Counted from the first letter of the stretch, positions 8,495 to 60,222 are shown. The stretch: DNA of 64,000 nt from a virus (IMGVR_UViG_3300028907_000003:1-64000), one strand, 5' to 3'. A program made the numbers and translations. Notes: generated by a model not told the origin, from the sequence alone.

Positions 8495-8559
8495 TCTATA
8501 TCACCCCCACAAATATCTGATATTTTATCTACCAGATACACAACTCTAGTTTTTCGCAT
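8491..8559 (-). CDS. 22-aa linker micro-ORF between the two TerL halves
   Basis: MRKTRVVYLVDKISDICGGDIE*; its TGA overlaps the GTG start of the nuclease gene. Confidence 0.3.
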   Translation of the reverse strand: MRKTRVVYLVDKISDICGGDIE

Positions 8560-10546
8560 CTTTATCCAACCCTCTGTTTCTTGCAGCTTCTATCCAATCT
8601 AACGGCAATAACGTATGTTCACCAACTGATGGAAAATTACCTTCAATTCTTGCTTGCCAAGCCGGATGATCCAACCCCCACATCTTATACTGAGATGCTA
8701 CCCATTTAGGCTGAATTAACCATGGATACGGAGCAAGTTCATCACCCATCTTATCTTTCCACGTACCATCAATAATGTCCTGCCGAGTTATTTTAAAGCG
8801 TGTAAAATTCGGTGTCATCCAAGCACTGATATGGAAAGTCTTATATTCACCACTTGAAAATGATTTATAAAAAGTACCACCAACTGACGTTGGATTTCCA
8901 AGCATAAGCATTTTCGCGTTTTCTGAAGTTAGAACACCCGAAATAGCATCGAATATTTCTTCATTTACACCTGCAGCTTCATCCACAACAACTAAAATAT
9001 CTTTAGCGTGCCATCCCTGAAAACGATCAGGCTGATTAGTTGATATACCGGACGCATACCAACGATCTTGATCGATTTGTAATTCAGGTGATTTCGGAGC
9101 TAATGTACCACCGAGATTACCAGCCCGTCTATGATTAATACGAATTTCTTTCCAGATCAATTTTTCGACCTGTCTCCAAGTAGGAGCAGTATTCAACACT
9201 ATACTATTTTTATGTGTATATAAAAACCACATAATTACTTGAGCAGCAGTGTGCGAATTATGTTCAACGAAATTTGTAACATAAGTATGCGTATCATCTA
9301 CCGAAATGCAAACTGTCGGATGCTCTCCTATATATTCTATAGATTTTATAAATTCCCAATGATATCCTTCCGGCGCATTTATATACTGCCACATAACATC
9401 AAACTTTCTACTATTGGCCACTTCAACACATCGGTTAACCGCATCTTCTTTACCATATATTCCAACTACTTCAGCAAAACGATTAATACCAACTCGATCA
9501 AAAACAGCCCATTCCCAGGAATCAAAATATTTCCCATTGCATTTTACTCTCTTATATCGAGTTCTGCCTGATATACCCATTCGTAGCATAGCAATTTCAA
9601 CGTCTTTAATCATTTGCTCTGATGCAGAAGTTATACCTATATGCGCGTTTTTATGACTACCATCAATCCGAACAGTTGCCCAACCATCGCATGCAAAATA
9701 TCGATTTAAAAATACTGCTAATTGATCATTCGGTAATGTCCAAACAAAAGCAGGAAATTTCTTATCTTTCGATTTAACACCGAACATTTTCCATTGTTTT
9801 ACTAAATCTAAAACACGATTTTCTCCATGAAAGGTTCCCGCAACAACTAATAGCCCATAATTATCACGCATTCGATAGCCACAATTCATACTAGTAACTA
9901 TATTAACAAACTCGGTTTTTGCAATTCCAGCTGCTTGCGTAAAAGTTATCGGATTAATAGTAGTGCCGCCATCTCCAATCAAATAACCACATAGCTTTAC
10001 TTCATCTATATCTCGTGATATCATACCATTAACTTCTAATTTCGTAGGTACTAATAACAAATCGTCAATTGTTAAATCAACTACCTCTGTCCAACCAACC
10101 ACTTTAGGTTTGATACCACGATTTCTTGCAGCAATTGCTCGATATAATTTATGATTACCTGTAACTTCTAGCTGTCGATTAGATGAAGTTGTAACTCGAT
10201 ATACTGAAGCAATACCATTGTCTGTGGCGTGGGCAACTGCAAACTTCCGCTCAGTGTCAAACGTGGGTATATTAAAAGTTTTACCGATTAAATCTTTCAT
10301 TTGACAATGTGTACCATCATATAAATCTATAAATCGATAAGCATAACCACACTTCCCTATACCATTGCAAGACCTAACGGTTACTCTAGGATAATCCCGC
10401 ACGGCATTTAAAATCTGTTTCTGTTTTTCCCAAGGCTTTATATGTAAAACATTTTCCGAGAAATAAACTGGATTCTCTTTATATTGTTGTATAGCAGCCG
10501 CGTTTAAATCATCAATCTTTCGTGGCATCTCGTACCATATCCGCAA
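8546..10546 (-). CDS. terL: terminase large subunit ATPase domain with intein
   Basis: Walker A CNGIGK|S, Walker B VVVDEA, LMLGNP coupling motif; start probably ATG at 10528. Confidence 0.9.
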   Translation of the reverse strand: MRIWYEMPRKIDDLNAAAIQQYKENPVYFSENVLHIKPWEKQKQILNAVRDYPRVTVRSCNGIGKCGYAYRFIDLYDGTHCQMKDLIGKTFNIPTFDTERKFAVAHATDNGIASVYRVTTSSNRQLEVTGNHKLYRAIAARNRGIKPKVVGWTEVVDLTIDDLLLVPTKLEVNGMISRDIDEVKLCGYLIGDGGTTINPITFTQAAGIAKTEFVNIVTSMNCGYRMRDNYGLLVVAGTFHGENRVLDLVKQWKMFGVKSKDKKFPAFVWTLPNDQLAVFLNRYFACDGWATVRIDGSHKNAHIGITSASEQMIKDVEIAMLRMGISGRTRYKRVKCNGKYFDSWEWAVFDRVGINRFAEVVGIYGKEDAVNRCVEVANSRKFDVMWQYINAPEGYHWEFIKSIEYIGEHPTVCISVDDTHTYVTNFVEHNSHTAAQVIMWFLYTHKNSIVLNTAPTWRQVEKLIWKEIRINHRRAGNLGGTLAPKSPELQIDQDRWYASGISTNQPDRFQGWHAKDILVVVDEAAGVNEEIFDAISGVLTSENAKMLMLGNPTSVGGTFYKSFSSGEYKTFHISAWMTPNFTRFKITRQDIIDGTWKDKMGDELAPYPWLIQPKWVASQYKMWGLDHPAWQARIEGNFPSVGEHTLLPLDWIEAARNRGLDKDAKN
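9257..10351 (-). mobile_element. intein (365 aa) with LAGLIDADG endonuclease in TerL Walker A
   Basis: C1 start (CGYAY), TGNH block B, YLIGDG and YFACDG motifs, ends HN followed by S. Confidence 0.92.
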
Positions 10547-21512: not shown

Positions 21513-21893
21513 TTATTTCGCCTCCGGAAAAGCTGCGTCTATTGAAATGTTCCATTCTCCACCAAAATCACTTGTATAAACCCTACCATTAACACGAGCA
21601 TCCGATATCTGTAATGTGGTATGTGGTGTTAACAGGGTTAACGAAAATTTATTATCTAATGGTATTTTATGTACATTTATTGATTCTTCATCATCAAACG
21701 TCAAGTCCACGTAAATAGTCTTATCTTTATGACATTCGTTCACGAATATACGCTTTGCTTTAATCGACGTTATCATAGATGTCGTGCATGAATCTCCAAC
21801 GACTTCTTTATTGATAAACACAGCTTTCGATTCTAATTGGATAGGTTCCAATTTTGGTTGTTTCCATACATTGAAATAATTTAATAGTCCCAT
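21513..21893 (-). CDS. hypothetical protein
   Basis: 126-aa ORF with upstream TATA. Confidence 0.5.
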   Translation of the reverse strand: MGLLNYFNVWKQPKLEPIQLESKAVFINKEVVGDSCTTSMITSIKAKRIFVNECHKDKTIYVDLTFDDEESINVHKIPLDNKFSLTLLTPHTTLQISDARVNGRVYTSDFGGEWNISIDAAFPEAK

Positions 21894-21973
21894 ATGTATT
21901 ACTATACATGTTCATAGTATATAAAGGTTACGTGTTAATGTATAATTATATGAAAAAATAAGTTAAAAGAGTT

Positions 21974-22330
21974 CTAAATGAATTCTAACCGAGTTGAAGT
22001 TTCCATTAATTGGGCAAATTCCTCCGGGGTGAAGAATAACTGATCTTGGTACTGTGTGGTGCGATCATATCCAACAGTACTACCTAGCTTCAATACTTCC
22101 CTGCTCTGATTAAGGGGCTTTCCGTCGTTTTCATTGTCCTTGGTAAACGCAGCCAAAGATGCTGTTAACGGCGTTGCTGTTAAATCTTCATTCAAGTCAC
22201 CTACAGAAACATTGGAATCTCCACCAAGCTTCACTACGGTATCTATACCATCCACGCTCGTAGCCGCTGCAGCAGACATGGTTAACGTCAGTGCAATCAG
22301 CAATAACATACTTGTTCTCATAACCAACAC
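21974..22330 (-). CDS. exported protein with signal peptide
   Basis: MRTSMLLLIALTLTMSAAAA signal-like N-terminus. Confidence 0.55.
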   Translation of the reverse strand: MLVMRTSMLLLIALTLTMSAAAATSVDGIDTVVKLGGDSNVSVGDLNEDLTATPLTASLAAFTKDNENDGKPLNQSREVLKLGSTVGYDRTTQYQDQLFFTPEEFAQLMETSTRLEFI

Positions 22331-22347
22331 TATGAACTACATGTTAT

Positions 22348-22896
22348 TTAAAGATTTCGCTCTATTATCGTATAAGGTGGAGCGCACCACGCATTGAACT
22401 TACAAGCCACATCAAGCGCCATGGTTACTCGTGTTTTTGGATCGAGTGATAATCCAGATGTCGCATGTAATGAGCCTAATGCGTAATCTGTGCCTGAACC
22501 ATCTACAACATAATCGGCGTGAGCACAAACGGAATAATCAGCGCCCATTGAGTATAGATTATTTTTGTAAACTATAATCATATATGAATCGGGTATCCTG
22601 GACACTTCATCTATAACTTCCGCCATTTTGATGTTTTCTAGGCATGTTCTTAACGAATTTGCAAATTCTGTACTGAGAAAATCGAGATCTGACTTATCTT
22701 CTGGTTTTGCTGGAACGCTGAACTGAGATCTAATTATATCAGCAAATCGCAAATATCCACATATTCCGATTATAGTATCTCCTTTCTCGACAAGTTTATT
22801 TGCCTCGGTGTTTATTATATGACCACCGGATGTTACTCGCGTGTCTGCACCAACGACTAATTTTCCGTCCTGTTTTAATCCAATTATACATGTCAT
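22348..22896 (-). CDS. proteasome beta/HslV-like Ntn threonine protease
   Basis: After Met removal T1, D17 (GADTR) and K33 fall exactly in register; DGSG motif. Confidence 0.82.
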   Translation of the reverse strand: MTCIIGLKQDGKLVVGADTRVTSGGHIINTEANKLVEKGDTIIGICGYLRFADIIRSQFSVPAKPEDKSDLDFLSTEFANSLRTCLENIKMAEVIDEVSRIPDSYMIIVYKNNLYSMGADYSVCAHADYVVDGSGTDYALGSLHATSGLSLDPKTRVTMALDVACKFNAWCAPPYTIIERNL

Positions 22897-22976
22897 ATGC
22901 TATATATAAGCTACCATAATATTAAAAGGTTTCGGATGGAAAGGTTTAAATACGAATAACATGTATATGGAGATGT

Positions 22977-23222
22977 ATGGTATTACCAAATGAATTCAAC
23001 ATAGGACCGCTTATCATACGGGCTAATGTAATTGATGATAATATAGTTACTGCTATATTTGTTGGTACTAAATATGAAGATATGCACGAAATCACTGGAT
23101 TTCGGGATCCTTCTCGTGCCGCTGCATTTGTACAAGAATTACAAGCGTGGTCTGAAGTTCCTGATATATGTGCTCCCGAAAATCGCGAATTAGAAATAAC
23201 AGTAAAGGTGAAAAGGTTATGA
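22977..23222 (+). CDS. hypothetical protein
   Basis: 81-aa ORF after BRE-TATA (GGAAAGGTTTAAATA). Confidence 0.5.
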   Translation: MVLPNEFNIGPLIIRANVIDDNIVTAIFVGTKYEDMHEITGFRDPSRAAAFVQELQAWSEVPDICAPENRELEITVKVKRL

Positions 23223-23776
23223 GAAGAATCTTCCTTGATGACTTTAATGATGGTCGTGAGACTGGTATTGAATTGGTTCAGTTGTATGGTGAATATCCTG
23301 GACAAGAAATAGTTACATATGGGATTCATTATAACACTGGTGATACACCAACTGATTATCCATACTGCGTCGTACCAAATGTTGGGATCAACTACTCGTT
23401 TAAAAAGAGTATGTTTATTCGTGTATATAATTGGGATCTTTTCCGTCAGCTAACTGGCGCAAAATCTATATCGGAATTAGGAATCTATCAATATGAATAT
23501 GATCCATATGGACTATTATATTTTGGTAGAAATACATATCCTAGAAGCCAATATGTGCAAGCCAGTGGTACAATAGCTGTATCAGGCGATTGGTGCGGAG
23601 ATGGAATGATATTAGCCAATGCATTTACCAAAATGAATCCATATGTAATCGCAAATGGGAAATTCTCAAAAGAATTTGAATCCGATTTATTCATATCACA
23701 GATAAAGATCTCATCTGACACTCAACAAGGACTGTATAGTTTTCCGCTTCTTCGTGTTACGGCGGTGATTGAGTAA
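23219..23776 (+). CDS. hypothetical protein
   Basis: ATGA-coupled ORF upstream of rtcB. Confidence 0.5.
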   Translation: MRRIFLDDFNDGRETGIELVQLYGEYPGQEIVTYGIHYNTGDTPTDYPYCVVPNVGINYSFKKSMFIRVYNWDLFRQLTGAKSISELGIYQYEYDPYGLLYFGRNTYPRSQYVQASGTIAVSGDWCGDGMILANAFTKMNPYVIANGKFSKEFESDLFISQIKISSDTQQGLYSFPLLRVTAVIE

Positions 23777-24930
23777 TGGAAATATTAGAAACCCATAGAT
23801 TGCCCATCTATAATTGGGCAACTGACTTGGAACAGGGAGCTAAACAGCAAGCTATTAATTTAGCTTTGCACCCATACACGTATGATCATGTGGCTATTAT
23901 GCCTGACAGTCATCAGGGTTATGGAATGCCAATTGGTGGGGTTATTGCTACTAAGTCGGTGATCATTCCTGAAGCAGTGGGGGTAGACATCGGATGTGGT
24001 ATGCAAGCTGTTAAAACTAGCCTCAGTGATATGAACATGACCGCTCTACAGCATGTAGTTGATGATATCAAATCTCGAATACCTGTTGGTTTCTCACATA
24101 GATCTGAATCATTATGGGCTTATATGCCACCAGGACACGAAAAATTAACAGTTGTTAACAGGGAATTTGACTCGGCGTGTCATCAATTAGGAACATTGGG
24201 TGGCGGGAACCACTTCATCGAAATTCAGCAAGGTGATGATGGTTATATCTGGATGATGGTTCATAGTGGAAGCCGCAATCTAGGCAAGAAGGTAGCCGAT
24301 CACTATATAAAAATGGCTACTCAGCAGACAGCAGATTCCGATGTCAACATTCCTAGAAAGTGGGAATTAGACTACTTATACGTAAATTCACCAGATGGCC
24401 AAGATTACATACGAGAAATGAACTACTGCCTAGAGTTTGCTAAAGCAAATCGCTCATATATGATGAAAGAAATGTGTGAATCCATGAGCGCTGTCATACC
24501 CACTGTTAGTTATGAGCCTGTAATTGATATACACCACAATTACGCCGAACCGATTAAACTGGATGGTCTTAATCTGGTGTTGCATAGGAAAGGCGCTACA
24601 GCTGCTAATCGTGGTCAGATGGGTATTATTCCTGGCAGTCAGGGGACCGCCAGCTACATTGTAGAGGGCCGTGGTAATGGTAAGTCGTTTTGCAGCTGCT
24701 CACATGGATCCGGGAGGCGCATGGCTAGAGGAGTCGCCAAGCGAAACTTAAACCTGGATGATGAGCGGTATATACTCGATAGGCAAATGATCATTCATGA
24801 TATGACCAGTACTGAAGCCCTAGATGAAGCTCCAGGCGCTTACAAGAATATCGAATTGGTTATGGAGAATCAAAAGGATCTAGTAAAGCCACTAGTTAGA
24901 TTGACTACAAGAGCGGTGATAAAAGGATGA
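23776..24930 (+). CDS. rtcB: RtcB 3'-phosphate RNA ligase (short bacterial-type)
   Basis: MPDSHQGYGMPIG, VDIGCG, GGGNHFIE, HSGSR, HRKGAT, SHGSGR, EAPGAYK. Confidence 0.95.
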   Translation: MEILETHRLPIYNWATDLEQGAKQQAINLALHPYTYDHVAIMPDSHQGYGMPIGGVIATKSVIIPEAVGVDIGCGMQAVKTSLSDMNMTALQHVVDDIKSRIPVGFSHRSESLWAYMPPGHEKLTVVNREFDSACHQLGTLGGGNHFIEIQQGDDGYIWMMVHSGSRNLGKKVADHYIKMATQQTADSDVNIPRKWELDYLYVNSPDGQDYIREMNYCLEFAKANRSYMMKEMCESMSAVIPTVSYEPVIDIHHNYAEPIKLDGLNLVLHRKGATAANRGQMGIIPGSQGTASYIVEGRGNGKSFCSCSHGSGRRMARGVAKRNLNLDDERYILDRQMIIHDMTSTEALDEAPGAYKNIELVMENQKDLVKPLVRLTTRAVIKG

Positions 24931-25090
24931 GCACTAAACATTTTTGTGATATCTGCAGCAAAGAGCTTTCATTGGTAACATGTGCCTACTGAGGGTAACA
25001 ATACCAGTTGGATACCCGGAGCCAATGGATAAGTGTATCGATTTGTGTACAAAATGCTATATGGATATATTTGAAAGGATCCAGAGATGA
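24927..25090 (+). pseudogene. small Zn-finger gene with a frameshift at 24981-24984
   Basis: MSTKHFCDICSKELSLVT then CLLRVTIPVG...DLCTKC...* in another frame; removing one TG restores it. Confidence 0.55.
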
Positions 25091-25349
25091 CCGAAAACCA
25101 ATTCCGCCGAATAACAATGATATTAGTCCTATTATAAAAGGATCAAAATACTTAGAATCATCATCTCCCGGCTCCAAAATACCATATACCCGAAGCTTCA
25201 ATGACATAGTTAAATCTCCTCGGCATCCTTTCTGGGTCCAACCGGACGTAACCTTATAGCGAGTGATGTGAAATACTCTATAAAAATTGGGTATTGAATC
25301 ACCTTACCACCTGGAAATGTTATATCTATAAAGTTAAGATCGTTGTAAC

Positions 25350-25616
25350 TCATACCTTAACCTTCGTCCAGAAATTGCCCTTCTCACCACACTTGGGCGT
25401 TTTGGATGGTCCGAATAACCACTCGCGCCAAGTCTGTACAAGACAACGCTCAACCCTACAATCGAGAAGAGGCCCGTCGAATATTAAAAACCCCTTGAAT
25501 ATAGGGTTGCATGTCTTCGTTTGCAACCTTGTGCATTTCATCGTCAGTCTATTCTTGCGATCCACTTTAGCGGAATAATTCCCGCAAGTATCACATGTCT
25601 TATTATCGCATGACAT
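25350..25616 (-). CDS. Cys-rich hypothetical protein
   Basis: CDTCGN...C...C...CG. Confidence 0.45.
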   Translation of the reverse strand: MSCDNKTCDTCGNYSAKVDRKNRLTMKCTRLQTKTCNPIFKGFLIFDGPLLDCRVERCLVQTWREWLFGPSKTPKCGEKGNFWTKVKV

Positions 25617-25673
25617 AGTACACTATTGGTTATACAGATATTTAAACTTTTTGACTAACTAAAAAAGAAGTGA

Positions 25674-26768
25674 TCACCAACACATGATGGGATCACATGA
25701 GATCGCTATCTGTGGAGTTACCATCTTTACAGCTTCCAGGAAATCATCATTGGTAATCATATCAGCATCGCGTCTAATCGCGATCATACCAGCTTCAGTT
25801 ACTACCGCTTTCAGCTGCGCTCCATTAAACTTATCGGTTATCTTAGCGATATGAACCAGATTCGCATCATGGGGAACTCCGGTAGTATGTATCTTCAAGA
25901 TTTCCAATCTAGCAGCTTCATTTGGTAAGGGAATTTCAATGAGCCGATCAAAACGCCCCGGACGGAGTAAAGCAGGATCTATTACATCGATCCGATTAGT
26001 CGCAGCAATGATCCTAACATTTCCCCGGATGTTGAATCCATCCAATTCCGCAAGTAGCTGCATCATGGTACGCTGGACCTCATCAGAGCCAACCGTACCA
26101 TCATTGGTACGAACCTTACAGAGAGCATCGATTTCATCAAAGAATATGATAGACGGAGCCTTATCACGAGCCAGCTGGAATAATTCTCTAACCAACTTAG
26201 CACCTTCTCCAATGAACTTAGCAACTAGTTCAGTTGAAGCCATGTTGAAGAATGTAGCATTAGTAGCAGCCGCTACAGCTTTTGCAGCAACCGTTTTTCC
26301 ACACCCACTCGGACCATACAATAATACTGCTTTTGGTGGTTCGATATTGATCCTTTTGAATGCGTCTGGCTTTATCAGTGGTAACTCAAGGACTTCTCTA
26401 ATGTCGCGGATTTGTTTCTCCAATCCACCGATTTGCTCATATGATGTAGTGGGTTTTGACATTAGTTCCATGATATGAACACGTGGATCTTTGCCACCTC
26501 GCAAAACAGCCATGATCACACATCCAGCGTTAATCGCTACTACTGCTCCGGGTAATACCCGCTGTTCCAGGTCGGGACTGCAATATGTAGCTAATTCCAT
26601 GTTATTTCCCCGCTGGCGAATTATAACTACATCATCATCGATGACATCTATGACATCAGCTACGCTGAAAGGTGGGTTTGATAAGTTTCGAATGATCTCA
26701 GCTTGCTTATCAATAGTTGCTCGCATCTGTGCCATCTGTGTTATAGTAGAAGCTATATCTTCACTCAT
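25674..26768 (-). CDS. pan: proteasome-activating nucleotidase (AAA+)
   Basis: Coiled coil and OB domain, IGGL, GPSGCGKT, KFIG pore loop, FFDEID, ATNR, RPGRFDR. Confidence 0.92.
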   Translation of the reverse strand: MSEDIASTITQMAQMRATIDKQAEIIRNLSNPPFSVADVIDVIDDDVVIIRQRGNNMELATYCSPDLEQRVLPGAVVAINAGCVIMAVLRGGKDPRVHIMELMSKPTTSYEQIGGLEKQIRDIREVLELPLIKPDAFKRINIEPPKAVLLYGPSGCGKTVAAKAVAAATNATFFNMASTELVAKFIGEGAKLVRELFQLARDKAPSIIFFDEIDALCKVRTNDGTVGSDEVQRTMMQLLAELDGFNIRGNVRIIAATNRIDVIDPALLRPGRFDRLIEIPLPNEAARLEILKIHTTGVPHDANLVHIAKITDKFNGAQLKAVVTEAGMIAIRRDADMITNDDFLEAVKMVTPQIAISCDPIMCW

Positions 26769-26809
26769 ACTCAGTACTTAGCATTCGAACTATTTAAATG
26801 TTCCGCTAT

Positions 26810-26882: not shown

Positions 26883-27098
26883 ATGAAATATGATAAAAAA
26901 TTCCCGTATGCAGAATACTTGGATGAAGTCTTTGGAGGAATATTTAAAGGCCATGAAAAGCGCCCATGTTTTATCTGCGGTGAATTGACCGAGTTTGTAG
27001 ATATGGATTATCAAGCTCATCTATGCTCAGAAGAATGCTCGACAGAACTAGATCAACGTGCGCTCAAAGCATGTTTAGAATCAGCGGTGGTAACATGA
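26883..27098 (+). CDS. small Zn-finger protein
   Basis: CFICG...LCSEEC. Confidence 0.55.
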   Translation: MKYDKKFPYAEYLDEVFGGIFKGHEKRPCFICGELTEFVDMDYQAHLCSEECSTELDQRALKACLESAVVT

Positions 27099-27448
27099 AA
27101 ACATCATACTTTAGCAAAGTAAAAGAAAATTTCCCAAATGCTGTAGCTATATGCCGATATAGCCCTGCTTGGTGGTCCGGATTTGAATATAAAGCTCTTG
27201 CGCCTAGTACTAAATTGCTATCGGATTATCGAGGAAAGGGTATATCTGATGCTGAATATGGCGCTAGATACCAACGAGAAGTATTAAATCTGTTGGATCC
27301 GCGTGTTACTTATGAAACAATTTGTAAGATGGCGGGTCCAGATGCTATATTGGTGTGTTGGGAAGGACCGACTAAATTCTGCCACAGGCATTTAGTTGCG
27401 CAGTGGTTTGAAGATGAAATTGGATGTAAAATACCGGAATTAGTATAA
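27095..27448 (+). CDS. DUF488-family protein
   Basis: MKTSYF...LAPS..LL...Y...Y..EVL..LDP...LVCWE....CHRHLVA. Confidence 0.75.
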   Translation: MKTSYFSKVKENFPNAVAICRYSPAWWSGFEYKALAPSTKLLSDYRGKGISDAEYGARYQREVLNLLDPRVTYETICKMAGPDAILVCWEGPTKFCHRHLVAQWFEDEIGCKIPELV

Positions 27449-50061: not shown

Positions 50062-52449
50062 ATGTCATTCGATCCTGCGGCTTGTTTGGTGTTTGATGAC
50101 CGGACAGGTAGTTTAATTGGTGTTGATGCTGTTAAGGTAAGAGATTGGTTTACCAAGCATTTTAGTGTACTGAGTATTGTACCCACAGGCGACATTTATG
50201 TGTACAATAATGGAGTTTTTAGATGCGAAGGTGGATCTAAAGAATGGATTACACACAAGCTGTATGAAAATTGGGGCAGATATACACTATATGATGGTAG
50301 CCCGTTGCTGAGTATCAATAGGGTGCGAGAGTTAGTTGCTTTTATACAATTAGCTACGTACCAAGAGATGTTCCTAGATGTTTCCACCAGAAAAACCGTG
50401 TTTGATGCCAATCTTGATATCGTTAATATGGCAAATGGTTTATATAATTGGAGGACAAATGAATTCATGCCTCATACCAGAGAGTATTTATCGAGGATAC
50501 AGGTTCCGGTTAGATATGTGGAGGGTGCTACATGTCCAACAATTGATGCTATAATCGGGGATGTATTAAAACCGCAAGATGTACCAAAGTTCTATGAGTT
50601 TGCTGGATATCTGTTTTACCGTGGAGTGGCCATTGATAAGGCTGTTATGATGCTGTACGGACCCGCTCGTAGCGGGAAGGCGTTGGAAGTTCATACACCA
50701 ATACCAACCCCGACAGGGTTCACTGAAATTGGTGATTTGGAAGTCGGGGATGAAGTGTTTGATGAAGAAGGTAACATCGTAAAAGTTATTGGCAAAAGTC
50801 CCGTGTGGAAAAACCGCCAATTATATGATGTTGCTACTAGTGATGGCGAACACATTCTTGCTGATGAGGAACATATTTGGCGAGTATGTTTAAATCCCGG
50901 TGTAAAAAAGGATCGACCTAGCCGACGAGAGTATATAACAGATCATACTACGGAAGATTTATATAATCGACCATCAACACGCAAACCTAGAATATTAGTG
51001 CAAGGTGCTATTAAAACCGGAAATATTGATCTACCAATAGGGCCATATACGTTAGGTGCGTGGTTGGGTGATGGAAATTCTCATAGTGCAATTATCACAC
51101 AACTTGATACCAATGATCGAGAATTTATGGAGAACCGTATAAACGAAGAAGGATATATAACAAGCAAACAAACAACCATTGGTACATTTGGTATACTTGG
51201 TCTTGTAACTCAACTTAGACAGCAAAGCTTATTAAAAAACAAACATATACCAATGATATACTTAAGAGCGAGTTATGATCAACGAATTGCCCTGCTGAAT
51301 GGACTAATAGATACTGATGGTTACGTTGGTGATACTGGGCATGTTGAATTCTGTACGACCAACAAAAACCTAGCAGATGGTGTATATGAACTTGTTAATT
51401 CACTTGGTGTAAAGGCAACCAAACATATTGGTGATGCGAAGCTTGATGGAAGGTTTATATCTAAAAAATATAGAGTGTGCTTTTACAAATCAGATGCTGC
51501 ATCACTTCCAAGAAAAAAGAATAAATGTCGAGACTCTGTTATGAGAGCGAATCGCTACATATCAATTACAAAGGCTGGTATTGGAGATACTATATGTATT
51601 CAAGTAAGTGCGCCATCTGGAATGTTCTTATGTGGTAAATCGTTCTTGCCGACTCATAATTCAGAATTAGCACGATTAATCATGAACGCAGTTGGAATAA
51701 ACAATTGTGCCGCAGTTACGCCACAGGAGCTTGGAAGAGATAAATTTGCAACAGCTGCTTTAGAGGGGAAGCTGGTTAATCTCGTGGGAGATGTGGATGA
51801 TAAGCCAATTGAGAATGAAGGTGTGTTTAAGAAGGTAACGAGCGGTAAGGACTTGCTACAAATCGAGAAGAAATTCCAACAGCCGGTTCAAGTAATAAAT
51901 ACTTGTAAAATGGTGTTAATCGCCAATATGTTGCCACCGATCTCGGATTTGACTAAGGGTTTCTTCAGACGGATGGAAATATTTGGGTGTTACCATGTGT
52001 TTGATCCACTGGTAGATGACCCGGAGAGGCTGAAAGCGATAGATGATCCTATGGAGTTATCCGGGTTTGTTATAAAGTGTTTGGGTATGTTGCCGGGAGT
52101 TCTTTCTAGGAAGATGCTGACTAATGAAATGTCTGCTGATGATGTACGGAGTCTTTACATCATGAACGCAAATCCGGTACAGGGATTTATTGATTTGTGT
52201 ATAGATGACGATGTTCCCGGTGGTTTCGCCAGTAAGGACATGACGTATAAATATTATGTGGATTTTTGCCGAGCTATAAAAGTTGAAAAACTGTCTAAGA
52301 CCATGTTTGGTAAAGCGTTTAAAAAAGCAATGGGGTGGACCGGAAATGAGCGACAAAGCCAGCGGAAGTTCCATGGTGGAGACAAGTGGGGATGGACTGA
52401 AATTAGGCTCAAGAAACCTGAATTAATGTTGGAAAAGTTGGTGTGTTAG
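50062..52449 (+). CDS. primase-associated SF3 (D5/P4-like) helicase with intein
   Basis: VNMANGLY...PH.REY, CP, GPARSGK|S, GKLVNLVGD, IEKKF, FFRR. Confidence 0.9.
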   Translation: MSFDPAACLVFDDRTGSLIGVDAVKVRDWFTKHFSVLSIVPTGDIYVYNNGVFRCEGGSKEWITHKLYENWGRYTLYDGSPLLSINRVRELVAFIQLATYQEMFLDVSTRKTVFDANLDIVNMANGLYNWRTNEFMPHTREYLSRIQVPVRYVEGATCPTIDAIIGDVLKPQDVPKFYEFAGYLFYRGVAIDKAVMMLYGPARSGKALEVHTPIPTPTGFTEIGDLEVGDEVFDEEGNIVKVIGKSPVWKNRQLYDVATSDGEHILADEEHIWRVCLNPGVKKDRPSRREYITDHTTEDLYNRPSTRKPRILVQGAIKTGNIDLPIGPYTLGAWLGDGNSHSAIITQLDTNDREFMENRINEEGYITSKQTTIGTFGILGLVTQLRQQSLLKNKHIPMIYLRASYDQRIALLNGLIDTDGYVGDTGHVEFCTTNKNLADGVYELVNSLGVKATKHIGDAKLDGRFISKKYRVCFYKSDAASLPRKKNKCRDSVMRANRYISITKAGIGDTICIQVSAPSGMFLCGKSFLPTHNSELARLIMNAVGINNCAAVTPQELGRDKFATAALEGKLVNLVGDVDDKPIENEGVFKKVTSGKDLLQIEKKFQQPVQVINTCKMVLIANMLPPISDLTKGFFRRMEIFGCYHVFDPLVDDPERLKAIDDPMELSGFVIKCLGMLPGVLSRKMLTNEMSADDVRSLYIMNANPVQGFIDLCIDDDVPGGFASKDMTYKYYVDFCRAIKVEKLSKTMFGKAFKKAMGWTGNERQSQRKFHGGDKWGWTEIRLKKPELMLEKLVC
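50680..51660 (+). mobile_element. class 3 intein (327 aa) with LAGLIDADG endonuclease
   Basis: Ala1 start (ALEVHTPIPTPTG), W in block B (EHIW), C in block F (TICIQV), T in PTHN; GAWLGDG and GLIDTDG. Confidence 0.9.
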
Positions 52450-53861: not shown

Positions 53862-54932
53862 GTGAGTATGATGACAGAAGAAAGAAAGTTAGCGTCTGTA
53901 CAGATAATTGAAAGTATTGAAGATGTTCCGAATTCGGATAATCTACAGGTTGCTAGAATATTAGGATGGCAAACCGTCATACGGCGAAATGAATATAACC
54001 CAGGAGATAAAATTATCTATGCGGAAATTGATTCGCTGTTACCCGAAGAACCGCAGTATGAATTTCTGCGCAAATGTTGCTACACCAGTGCTAATAAAGG
54101 GTTCAGAATTAAGAGTATGAAACTGAGAGGATGCCTTAGCCAAGGGTTAGTGCTACCGCTGGATATACTCGGAGAACATGCTGAAAGCGCTCAAATAGGT
54201 GATAATGTAACCGAGTTGCTAGGGATCCGGAAATGGGAACGTGCTCCAGCTGAAGGCGAGAAAGCAAGGTTGTTTGGTCATGCGCGAGGAAGCTTGCCAC
54301 ATAGGATTCCCCGCACTGATGAAATACGTCTACAAAGCTGTGTTGATGTATTGAAACGCCATGAAGGAAAGATGTTTTCTGTTACCGAGAAGTACGACGG
54401 AACTTCAATGTCTGTGTTTTGGGATCCGGAAGATGGGTTACATGTGTGTAGCAGGAATGTTGATTTAAAGCCGGATTACGAGCATAAATGGAATGGAACT
54501 GCGTATTGGGATTATGCTATAGAACACGATTTGGAAAGCGTAGTGCATCAAATTGGAGACAATGTGGTGTTACAGGGAGAGCTTATAGGCCCAGGTATAC
54601 AGGGAAACCATTATAAACTAGAAGCGCTTGTATATAGGGTGTTTAACATGTACGATCTTAATACCGGGAAGTATTCGAGTTATCAGGAAATGAGTGATCG
54701 AGTTAAAGAGTTAGGACTTGGTAATGACTTCCTAGTACATGAGATCTGTAATATAAGCTTGCCTAATGACCTACAGGCCATGTTAAAGCTGTCCAAGGGT
54801 AAATCAGTGTATGGTGACATGAGCCGAGAAGGAATCGTGTGTAGAGCCGTTCCAGAGGACAGAGATGTTAAATTGGGGAGGTTGTCATTTAAGGTAATTA
54901 ATGATGACTTCTTGCTTGAGAAAGGAGAGTGA
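53862..54932 (+). CDS. ATP-dependent RNA ligase (DRB0094/Rnl2 family)
   Basis: RKLASVQII...GWQTV; SQGL; TEKYDGTS; QGELIGPGIQGN; EGIV; SFKVI. Confidence 0.9.
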   Translation: MSMMTEERKLASVQIIESIEDVPNSDNLQVARILGWQTVIRRNEYNPGDKIIYAEIDSLLPEEPQYEFLRKCCYTSANKGFRIKSMKLRGCLSQGLVLPLDILGEHAESAQIGDNVTELLGIRKWERAPAEGEKARLFGHARGSLPHRIPRTDEIRLQSCVDVLKRHEGKMFSVTEKYDGTSMSVFWDPEDGLHVCSRNVDLKPDYEHKWNGTAYWDYAIEHDLESVVHQIGDNVVLQGELIGPGIQGNHYKLEALVYRVFNMYDLNTGKYSSYQEMSDRVKELGLGNDFLVHEICNISLPNDLQAMLKLSKGKSVYGDMSREGIVCRAVPEDRDVKLGRLSFKVINDDFLLEKGE

Positions 54933-59334: not shown

Positions 59335-59687
59335 GACCGAAAGGTATAAATAGAATTGTAATCTATATGAGTTCTATGAAAGAAATTAAATTTAAGGTTC
59401 CGGTGTTTCATAGTGGAGTGAATACTACGTGTCGTGTAGGATATAAGAATTTTGCTATCGCTGAGCATGTTTATTTGTCTGACGACGAAGGATTTCCATT
59501 GCATGAAGCCGAGATAGAATTCATATACGTTGGTGCTTTTTATGGTGTACCAGATGCGTTTATTGCAATGGAACATGACCCTGAATGTACGAGTTATAAG
59601 AATTTGTATGAGATAATGCGTAACATTTATCCGGACTTTATGTTCAACACTATTGTAACCATGATAGGGTTTGTCATATATGCTTGA
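59328..59687 (+). CDS. ASCH/PUA-like domain protein
   Basis: TTCRVG...AMEH......L...MRNIY...VTMIGF. Confidence 0.55.
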   Translation: MVRPKGINRIVIYMSSMKEIKFKVPVFHSGVNTTCRVGYKNFAIAEHVYLSDDEGFPLHEAEIEFIYVGAFYGVPDAFIAMEHDPECTSYKNLYEIMRNIYPDFMFNTIVTMIGFVIYA

Positions 59688-60222
59688 TTGGTATCCATGG
59701 TTCTTATTAGTTATCTCAATGCTAGGAGCTTTCTTAGTATCAGACAAACGAATGATAAGGAAACGCTATGGATATGTTACATGGTTGATAAGTAATGGAT
59801 TAATCGGGCTACAATATTGGGGAATGGGTAACATTGCCCAGACATTGTTGTTTGGTGTCGGATATCAAATATTTAATATTAGAGGATTTATAAATTCCAA
59901 GGAGATAAATATGACCAGATCAGTAGATTTAAATACAACTTTCATTTATGTAATTGACAGCAGCTTGGGGATGTCGAAGGGTAAAATCGCTGCTCAGGTA
60001 AGTCACGTGGCCATGCGGCTTGCTGACAAGCATAAGTGTCTCGGAAGAGCCGTGATTTTAAAGGCCGATCATGAGACTTTTATGCAGCTGGAGCAAGATA
60101 TTGACTGTGAAACCATCATTGACGCGGGTTTAACTGAAGTTGCGCCAGGAACCCTAACCTGCATTGGATTCGTGGGTAATGATGATAACCGAGAAAAAAC
60201 AAAATCTTTAAAATTAGTATAA
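59671..60222 (+). CDS. pth2: PnuC-like membrane segment fused in frame to peptidyl-tRNA hydrolase 2
   Basis: Three hydrophobic helices then MSKGKIAAQVSH...ILKA...IDAGLTEVAPGTLTCIG; internal SD plus ATG at 59911. Confidence 0.8.
   Translation: MSYMLDWYPWFLLVISMLGAFLVSDKRMIRKRYGYVTWLISNGLIGLQYWGMGNIAQTLLFGVGYQIFNIRGFINSKEINMTRSVDLNTTFIYVIDSSLGMSKGKIAAQVSHVAMRLADKHKCLGRAVILKADHETFMQLEQDIDCETIIDAGLTEVAPGTLTCIGFVGNDDNREKTKSLKLV

Follow-up and report, generated by a model that had tools for sequence, protein, structure and literature searches.

Whether a virus can carry an ATP-dependent protein degradation machine of its own is the question raised by a 64,000-nucleotide stretch of viral DNA (the window, from whose first letter all positions are counted), in which a gene for a PAN-family AAA+ unfoldase and a gene for a proteasome-beta/HslV-like threonine peptidase lie on the same, minus, strand, 2,777 bp apart (Table 1). 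A sequence-only reading of the window had described the two as a virus-encoded protease pair. That they are virus-encoded is borne out by the 84,999-bp record which contains the window and which, at approximately 80% completeness, harbours genes for a portal, an intein-containing terminase, a baseplate, PolB and a D5 primase-helicase as well as 7 tRNAs, and thus belongs to a tailed virus. Thirteen digester and wastewater studies contained DNA of this stretch, and the carrier is a tailed virus of wastewater archaea, its inferred host being a methanogen-type archaeon.

Table 1. Features of the PAN and peptidase region (positions within the window).
Feature	Position	Strand	Remarks	Basis
PAN-family AAA+ unfoldase	25674..26768	-	364 aa	profiles, 6he8 alignment, motif alignment
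TATA-like box TTTAAATA (archaeal)	26791..26798	-	22 nt upstream of PAN ATG	sequence reading
T6 run	25661..25666	-	8 nt past PAN stop codon	sequence reading
Second TTTAAATA box	25639-25646	-	22 nt before ATG of the Cys-rich ORF	
Cys-rich ORF	25350..25616	-	88 aa, downstream of PAN, no family match	ORF call
ORF202 and RtcB RNA ligase	23168..24930	+	between PAN and peptidase; ORF202 without family; RtcB at 23776-24930; one-base overlap	profiles
TATA-like box TTTTAATA	22920..22927	-	23 nt upstream of peptidase ATG	inferred from sequence
Ntn threonine peptidase	22348..22896	-	182 aa, no propeptide, phrog_1040 ('peptidase HslV family')	profiles, AF2, Foldseek
Two small ORFs	21513..22330	-	118 aa and 126 aa, just downstream of peptidase, no family match	

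ORF calling, profile searches and alignment confirmed both the position of the PAN gene on the minus strand and the completeness of its AAA motif set. The deduced protein is matched by the NCBIfam PAN subfamily model NF003069 (E 6e-138, 460.1 bits) and by TIGR01242 (428.5 bits), in both cases below the curated cut-off of 500, as well as by Pfam AAA (5.9e-42) and AAA_lid_3 (1.4e-12), while the PAN of Archaeoglobus (6he8) can be aligned to its residues 25-351. In an alignment of 40 PAN sequences the Walker A motif G-x-x-G-x-G-K, the Walker B residues D211/E212, the pore loop K184-F-I-G, the sensor-1 residues T257/N258, the arginine fingers R269/R272 and the linker proline Pro33 are all invariant, the viral Walker A taking the form GPSGCGKT with an unusual Ser154 and Cys156. 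An OB domain is present ahead of the AAA module, and relative to the PANs of Methanomicrobiales the N-terminal coiled coil lacks about 25 residues. Purifying selection on the gene is strong (dN/dS 0.04 as compared to L084), and one 1,144-nt metatranscriptome contig spans it in its entirety, with contigs of two further studies spanning parts of it.

The C-terminus of the viral PAN (...DPIMCW) ends in M-C-W, such that the hydrophobic methionine of the HbYX motif is kept and its tyrosine is replaced by cysteine in a tail of normal length. The altered tail, devoid of a penultimate aromatic residue, had been pointed out before and was confirmed by comparison with cellular Methanomicrobiales PANs, approximately 70 of which end in RMY[ITLV], with RMF found in 4 cellular PANs. 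The viral tail, SCDP[IN]MCW, is conserved across 10 near-identical variants, and penultimate tyrosine is absent from all five members of the clade to which this PAN belongs, their C-termini being MCW, MCY, MFC, MCA and MVS. These five lineages are monophyletic (SH-aLRT 99) and long-branched and fall outside the Methanomicrobiales crown, apparently representing a small, fast-evolving and virus-associated group. Relatives within the PAN clade include P0003 on an 8.3-kb contig, P0015, and P0018 on a 125.7-kb contig, and PAN-length close relatives of P0018 are confined to other clade members. The 'Hb' residue has been described as the driver of gate opening and 'YX' as binding support (PMC12352868), with the tyrosine hydroxyl contacting G19 and the terminal carboxylate contacting K66 (PMC10349882). 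The M-C-W tail, with the gate-opening 'Hb' kept and the binding 'Y' lost, is in this sense a natural experiment that bears on the HbYX mechanism, and on the ways in which a virus could divert, slow down or circumvent the proteasome of its host.

That the genes are mere passengers, decaying host genes caught by chance, or that the contig is cellular, might be argued from the closest named relatives of the viral PAN, which are cellular methanogen PANs (50-58% identity for those of Methanomicrobiales). However, the tailed-virus genes of the record, the depth and isolation of the PAN clade, the purifying selection, and the recurrence of the gene in 10 variants and of the stretch in 13 studies essentially refute this, and we regard it as highly improbable. 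Searches for PAN in other viruses returned no full-length PAN among 50,697 GenBank phage records, and no PAN in IMG/VR pattern scans with the viral PAN, P0018 and P0003; an alignment-based IMG/VR scan gave matches to the AAA module only, a genome-contig scan gave nothing but irrelevant Nitrosomonas AAA matches, and a metagenome scan with PAN retrieved just three short contigs (L082-L084) lacking usable flanks. With no relevant report of a virus-encoded PAN in the searchable literature, this is apparently the first case of PAN in a virus, and if its absence elsewhere holds, the present lineage shows that a regulatory ATPase of the proteasome can be part of an archaeal virus genome.

The viral PAN may also feed no peptidase at all. 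It could unfold or remodel proteins on its own, as a chaperone (in virion assembly or host-protein inactivation), or serve as a dominant-negative that dampens host proteolysis, either by co-assembling with host PAN subunits or by filling the pockets of the host 20S particle without productive gating. The binding-supporting tyrosine is gone and the rest is kept, including the linker proline needed for trimer-of-dimers assembly; the shorter coiled coil alters the substrate-recruiting end; and PAN possesses a proteasome-independent chaperone activity in vitro. We nonetheless judge this possibility rather unlikely, as a pure blocker would need neither intact Walker B, pore loops nor arginine fingers, all of which are invariant in a gene with the dN/dS noted above, and mixed hexamers are uncertain at 50-56% identity to host-type PANs.

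The product of the second gene begins with M-T, lacks a propeptide and contains a GSG motif. The sequence-only reading had placed T1/D17/K33 in exact register, and this holds, since with Thr2 counted as residue 1 both D17 and K33 match HslV exactly; all 123 family members examined have K34 (counted from Met1), and at least 90% share M1, T2, D18 and the G-S-G glycines. The phrog_1040 profile covers residues 1-179 (7.8e-22), and profile matches were obtained to the beta-proteobacteria proteasome homologue BPH (6.7e-16) and to HslV (2.7e-15). The AF2 model (pLDDT 97.5) was matched best by BPH in Foldseek (TM 0.85), followed by HslV (TM 0.69-0.76). Scores remained below the cut-offs of the HslV equivalogs (NF003964, 27.4 vs 137 bits; TIGR03692, 26.8 vs 157.75), of Pfam Proteasome PF00227 (20.8 vs 22.4 bits) and of the archaeal beta subunit (TIGR03634, 25.7 vs 224). 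A role as stand-in for the host beta subunit was considered and rejected, given the missing propeptide, the BPH-like character and the scores below the beta cut-offs. The lack of an alpha subunit was likewise substantiated, in that PF00227 matches the peptidase gene and no second gene in the 84,999-bp record, which is about 80% complete. The peptidase represents a known and very large phage family (4,512 representative clusters), of which it is a typical member, and elsewhere the neighbours of such peptidases are nucleotide-metabolism genes. One relative of the peptidase, P0293, is located on a 9.9-kb contig.

The proposal that the two genes constitute a pair was not borne out by the layout of the locus. 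The position of the TTTAAATA box, 22 nt from the PAN start codon, suggests a leaderless transcript from a separate promoter, and the T6 run behind the gene is likely an archaeal oligo-T terminator. RNA-library contigs cover the region of the Cys-rich ORF (25316-25616) and leave most of the peptidase and RtcB genes uncovered, a gap that is no evidence of silence. ORF202 and RtcB are read in the opposite direction between PAN and peptidase, and the TTTTAATA box is situated in the divergent intergenic region which the peptidase shares with ORF202-RtcB; the 118-aa and 126-aa ORFs, the former with a signal-peptide-like N-terminus, may be co-transcribed with the peptidase. Because the probable promoters are separate and an opposite-strand RtcB unit intervenes, PAN and peptidase do not represent a conserved module. 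Co-occurrence, which the sequence-only reading had itself named among its checks, points the same way: PAN was found within 10 kb on either side of the peptidase at none of 80 IMG/VR loci and in none of 50 whole viral records carrying the peptidase, and it is absent from the archaeal Methanobacterium virus PhiF1, which possesses the peptidase. Among the 12 peptidase-carrying records with a completeness of 90% or more, eight contain no AAA gene at all, and vir525, the nearest annotated virus, has neither gene.

Scans with PF00004 and PF07724 (HslU/Clp type) matched the PAN gene only in the 85-kb record, which thus encodes a single AAA ATPase and no HslU; PAN is therefore the only possible virus-encoded partner of the peptidase, and coupling of the two is possible. 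A dedicated viral protease could be envisaged, in which a PAN hexamer would use its non-HbYX tail to dock on the BPH/HslV-like ring of the virus and degrade host proteins, for example those of defence, without the host 20S particle. Such an enzyme would accord with the sole ATPase, the absent alpha subunit, the clade-wide loss of the HbYX tyrosine and conservation of the new tail, and with the location of both genes, 2.8 kb apart, in one early/auxiliary region; furthermore, we know of no HslU in archaeal hosts that could serve an HslV-like peptidase. Both genes are also intact in related strains at parallel steps of identity (99/84/69% for PAN and 98/84/57% for the peptidase), which fits co-inheritance in this virus lineage. 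On the other hand, the genes belong to separate transcription units, between which lies one that runs in the opposite direction, and differ in evolutionary origin, hundreds of viral lineages (PhiF1 included) possess a peptidase of this family and no PAN, and a BPH-like tetradecamer would bring back a 6:7 mismatch, BPH of the 5ovs-5ovu structures being reportedly a tetradecameric double ring. A predicted complex of two peptidase copies with PAN residues 100-364 (score 0.02, mark 0.32) is evidence neither way. On balance we hold a dedicated viral protease to be unlikely, and its specific form, a hybrid ATP-dependent protease whose PAN tail was re-tuned (tyrosine to cysteine, with an aromatic last residue) for the BPH/HslV-like ring, to be marginally less likely still. 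If true, the hybrid, an archaeal ATPase joined to a peptidase of bacterial/phage type, would have no precedent in nature as a PAN-HslV-type chimera; it would give the BPH-like group its first ATPase partner and the virus a private degradation machine independent of the host 20S particle. To our knowledge BPH has no ATPase partner, and the viral PAN is the only obvious candidate for this orphan BPH/HslV-like peptidase group.

The explanation that we favour, with about even confidence, is that of two genuine functional genes which were independently acquired and are independently transcribed, with no conserved two-component module, PAN capping the host 20S particle and the peptidase working without a viral ATPase. 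The viral PAN, which descends from archaeal PAN, would be an AAA+ unfoldase that works as a hexamer; its clade has lost the penultimate tyrosine and, from the substrate-facing coiled coil, some 25 residues, and has retained the Hb methionine. It may still dock on the alpha ring of the host 20S particle, where its affinity or gating, and also its choice of substrates, would be changed; as an alternative cap under viral control it could thereby redirect host proteasomes, or compete for them, in infection. The loss of the tyrosine could equally mean that the tail has been retargeted away from the host 20S particle. For the peptidase, a host aminopeptidase would take off Met1 to expose the Thr1 nucleophile, and by homology the protein may self-assemble as a stacked-ring chamber that would function without a virus-encoded ATPase, as in most phages which carry the family.

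As compared to known systems, the viral PAN resembles archaeal PAN (NF003069/TIGR01242; 6he8, 3h4m) in its coiled coil, proline linker, OB domain and classic-clade AAA module with lid, and has kept all catalytic and pore-loop residues; it differs in being virus-encoded, in its sub-cut-off score, shorter N-terminus, GPSGCGKT motif and M-C-W tail, and in forming a long-branched clade of its own. Phage FtsH-like and other AAA proteins, such as that of Pseudomonas phage PA5oct, share the classic-clade AAA module (37-43% identity over residues ~105-350 of the viral PAN), whereas the FtsH- and CDC48-type proteins of phages are without the PAN coiled coil and OB domain, and none of the phage AAA records spans at least 80% of the viral PAN. 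The peptidase has the T1/D17/K33 register of HslV (ClpQ) of HslUV, together with the GSG motif, a length of about 180 residues and no propeptide; unlike HslV, it lies far under the equivalog cut-offs, has no HslU in the virus and shows a weaker fold match than with BPH. With BPH (5ovs/5ovt/5ovu) it has in common a compact group-I subunit, no propeptide and a Thr1 nucleophile, although identity is only ~21% and the gene here is that of an archaeal virus. The group-I proteasome homologues PPH, AAH and CPH are phage-borne (Fuchs, Alva & Lupas 2021, PMC8665760), and the peptidase is likewise a compact HslV/BPH-like subunit of the kind spread by tailed phages. The difference is that here, as in Methanobacterium virus PhiF1, the carriers are archaeal viruses, which places in such viruses a BPH/HslV-like group I that earlier work had confined to bacteria and the phages infecting them.

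The 84,999-bp linear virus record, of CheckV completeness approximately 80% and with its first 64 kb as the window, encodes a complete PAN and an HslV-like peptidase, no alpha subunit being found in the record, as the sequence-only reading had proposed, whereas its further claim that the two proteins constitute a virus-encoded AAA+ protease pair is not supported by the comparative data. The virus is tailed, encoding a portal, an intein-containing large terminase and a baseplate wedge, and its replication genes include a D5-type primase-helicase with a LAGLIDADG insert and an intein-containing PolB; NrdD with inteins, two radical-SAM enzymes, a C5 methylase, PTH2, RtcB, an Rnl-type RNA ligase and seven tRNAs are also encoded, and the last four of these amount to a set of tools for repairing and maintaining tRNA. 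Inteins are abundant: NrdD has two intein/LAGLIDADG signatures, and such signatures also occur in PolB, the primase-helicase and the large terminase. The closest relative of the terminase (57% over the C-terminal extein) is that of Caudoviricetes sp. vir525, annotated with a Methanosarcinales host, and DNA of the virus was present in wastewater, activated-sludge and anaerobic-digester metagenomes from 13 studies. The anaerobic RNR and the habitat are consistent with an anaerobic host and, combined with the terminase match and the nearest cellular PANs, indicate a methanogen-type archaeon as the probable host.

Coordinates of the features discussed (window positions, except where marked L087, the handle of a DNA sequence)
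Feature	Position	Strand	Remarks
PAN	25674-26768	-	364 aa
Peptidase	22348-22896	-	182 aa
ORF202	23168-23776	+	202 aa; no known family
RtcB RNA ligase	23776-24930	+	
Rnl-type RNA ligase	53862-54932		
PTH2	59671-60222		
Candidate TATA box of PAN, TTTAAATA	26791-26798		archaeal-type, read by eye
Candidate TATA box of peptidase, TTTTAATA	22920-22927		archaeal-type, read by eye
Cys-rich ORF directly downstream of PAN	25350-25616	-	88 aa; no Pfam family matched
DUF488-N3a family protein	27023-27448	+	5.8e-09; just upstream of PAN, opposite strand
ORF directly downstream of peptidase	21974-22330	-	118 aa; signal-peptide-like hydrophobic N-terminus; no family matched
Intein/LAGLIDADG region	8546-10546	-	
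Intein/LAGLIDADG region	50062-52449	+	
Intein/LAGLIDADG region	L087:955-4644		
Intein/LAGLIDADG region	L087:9703-14364		

The two ORFs were confirmed at the coordinates given by the sequence-only reading, on the same strand and 2,777 bp apart. The peptidase leads a minus-strand run continuing with the 118-aa ORF, which may be co-transcribed with it, and a 126-aa ORF, and this run is separated from PAN by the plus-strand ORF202-RtcB unit, on which PAN converges from the far side. ORF202 and RtcB overlap by one base, the last of ORF202 being the first of the RtcB ATG, and ORF202 may serve RtcB as a cofactor or be a protein related to its substrate. As read by eye, candidate TATA boxes lie 22-23 nt before the ATG of PAN and of the peptidase, and a T6 run 8 nt beyond the PAN stop codon is followed by another TTTAAATA, 22 nt before the ATG of the small Cys-rich ORF, over whose region (25316-25616) metatranscriptome contigs were found.

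The peptidase begins M-T-C-I and, with Thr as residue 1, places Asp17 and Lys33 in exact HslV register, as previously read, with a G-S-G loop at about position 134. Its scores are too low for any of the curated HslV, archaeal beta or Pfam Proteasome cut-offs, and it matches phrog_1040, 'peptidase HslV family' (7.8e-22). At E<=1e-3 an exhaustive HMMER search returned 4,512 representative clusters (1,675 at E<=1e-10), nearly all approximately 180 aa and beginning at the catalytic Thr; among 123 members Lys34 is invariant, and conservation is 90% or higher at M1, T2, G16, D18 and the glycines of GSG. The very confident AlphaFold model (pLDDT 97.5) was best matched among solved structures by BPH (TM 0.85), with HslV (0.69-0.76) and 20S beta subunits behind, and profile searching agreed (BPH 6.7e-16, Thermotoga HslV 2.7e-15). 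HslV, BPH, AAH, CPH and PPH form the 'group I' proteasome homologues (Fuchs, Alva and Lupas; PMC8665760), several of which have been spread by phages and which were stated to occur in bacteria and bacteriophages only (PMC8665760). The window peptidase and a relative at 27% identity in Methanobacterium virus PhiF1 extend this group to archaeal viruses; the family itself is known from phages, the host domain being what is new here.

A dedicated machine of PAN and peptidase would be favoured by PAN being the sole AAA or Clp/HslU-type ATPase found in the record, by the lack of an alpha subunit there, by archaeal hosts not being known to have HslU, by the surrender across the whole PAN clade of the Tyr that supports 20S binding, and by the parallel identity steps of the relatives (PAN 99/84/69%, peptidase 98/84/57%), which fit co-inheritance within the lineage, these relatives being on short contigs. 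Against it stand the intervening opposite-strand unit, the apparently separate candidate promoters and the absence of linkage elsewhere: no PAN turned up in the 1.3 Mb flanking the peptidase family at 80 IMG/VR loci (tblastn; one weak AAA match), in any of 50 whole records from these, or in the complete archaeal virus PhiF1, and vir525, the nearest annotated relative of the virus, yielded neither gene. Weak AAA-only matches occurred in 10 of the 50 records, mostly jumbo genomes or proviruses, and 8 of the 12 records at least 90% complete lacked even these. In PhiF1, Geobacillus virus E3 and an Ochrobactrum phage, the peptidase lies beside nucleotide-metabolism genes rather than ATPase genes. 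Moreover, the origins differ, PAN being of archaeal cellular ancestry and the peptidase from a pan-Caudoviricetes pool. We regard such a machine as unlikely.

The best family of the viral PAN is the PAN subfamily NF003069 (E 6e-138), its 460 bits falling under the curated cut-off of 500. Pfam AAA and AAA_lid_3 domains are present, and Archaeoglobus PAN (6he8) aligns with residues 25-351, which shows a complete AAA module along with the OB domain. Invariant positions in an alignment of 40 sequences, cellular PANs included, are linker Pro33, Lys158 and the glycines of Walker A, D211/E212 of Walker B, K184-x-I186-G187 of the pore loop, T257/N258 of sensor-1, and R269/R272. The protein departs from cellular PANs in its N-terminus and coiled coil (approximately 25 residues shorter), its tail, and its Walker A (residues 152-159), which reads G-P-S-G-C-G-K-T as compared to G-P-P-G-T-G-K-T in at least 90% of aligned PANs, a recent change given that the 84% and 69% relatives are canonical.

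No PAN was found by tblastn against 50,697 GenBank phage and archaeal-virus records, where all 124 matches were to the AAA module alone (coverage <=69%; FtsH-like and similar), or in pattern scans of 2.9 million IMG/VR contigs, which gave AAA-module matches only, a few giant-virus MAG contigs reaching the OB region. Two of the latter (L040, L042) match from residue ~42-58 onward at 35-39% identity and may represent either Rpt-like proteasomal ATPases of giant-virus bins or contaminating eukaryotic sequence. Virus-encoded PAN is not mentioned in the searched literature, including a 2026 survey of 3,708 archaeal viral genomes, and thus appears undescribed so far, absence from searched resources not being proof. 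Five lineages, comprising the viral PAN and its relatives, form one clade (SH-aLRT 99) with long branches, outside the sampled Methanomicrobiales crown and weakly sister to two 411-aa PANs; a search from its most distant member (P0018) found no PAN-length close relatives besides members of the clade. Against L084, a 92%-identical metagenomic variant, dN/dS was 0.04 over 114 codons, and the tail S-C-D-P-[IN]-M-C-W is kept in 10/10 near-identical variants. The gene is thus maintained by selection, and this and the conservation contradict PAN and peptidase being passenger genes, which we consider highly improbable. A 1,144-nt metatranscriptome-library contig spans 25610-26753 with one mismatch, and parts of the gene are matched by contigs of two further RNA studies; this suggests that PAN is transcribed but, as such libraries can contain DNA, does not prove it.

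Our preferred reading, which as a joint claim we give an even chance, is that the viral PAN addresses the host 20S as an alternative cap while the peptidase is independent. The PAN would be an active hexameric unfoldase with altered affinity for, or gating of, the host 20S, its shortened coiled coil offering a different substrate-recruiting end, and would thereby give the virus an alternative cap under its own control; the peptidase would work on its own, as in many phages without any AAA partner. We consider it unlikely that the viral PAN is an unfoldase working without the proteasome, or acts as a dominant-negative subunit or cap. On the archaeal 20S the carboxylate of the HbYX tail pairs with alpha-Lys66, the Tyr hydroxyl bonds the Gly19 backbone and the Hb group occupies a hydrophobic pocket (PMC10349882); filling that pocket suffices for gate opening, 'YX' chiefly aiding binding (PMC12352868). 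Approximately 70 cellular Methanomicrobiales PANs end in R-M-Y-[ITLV] and four in R-M-F-x, whereas the viral PAN ends, as previously noted, in the non-HbYX M-C-W, and its relatives in M-C-W (99%), M-C-Y (84%), M-F-C (69%), M-C-A (58%) and M-V-S (58%). As compared to the cellular tails, the viral PAN has thus kept the Hb Met and the normal spacing, while the Tyr has been replaced.
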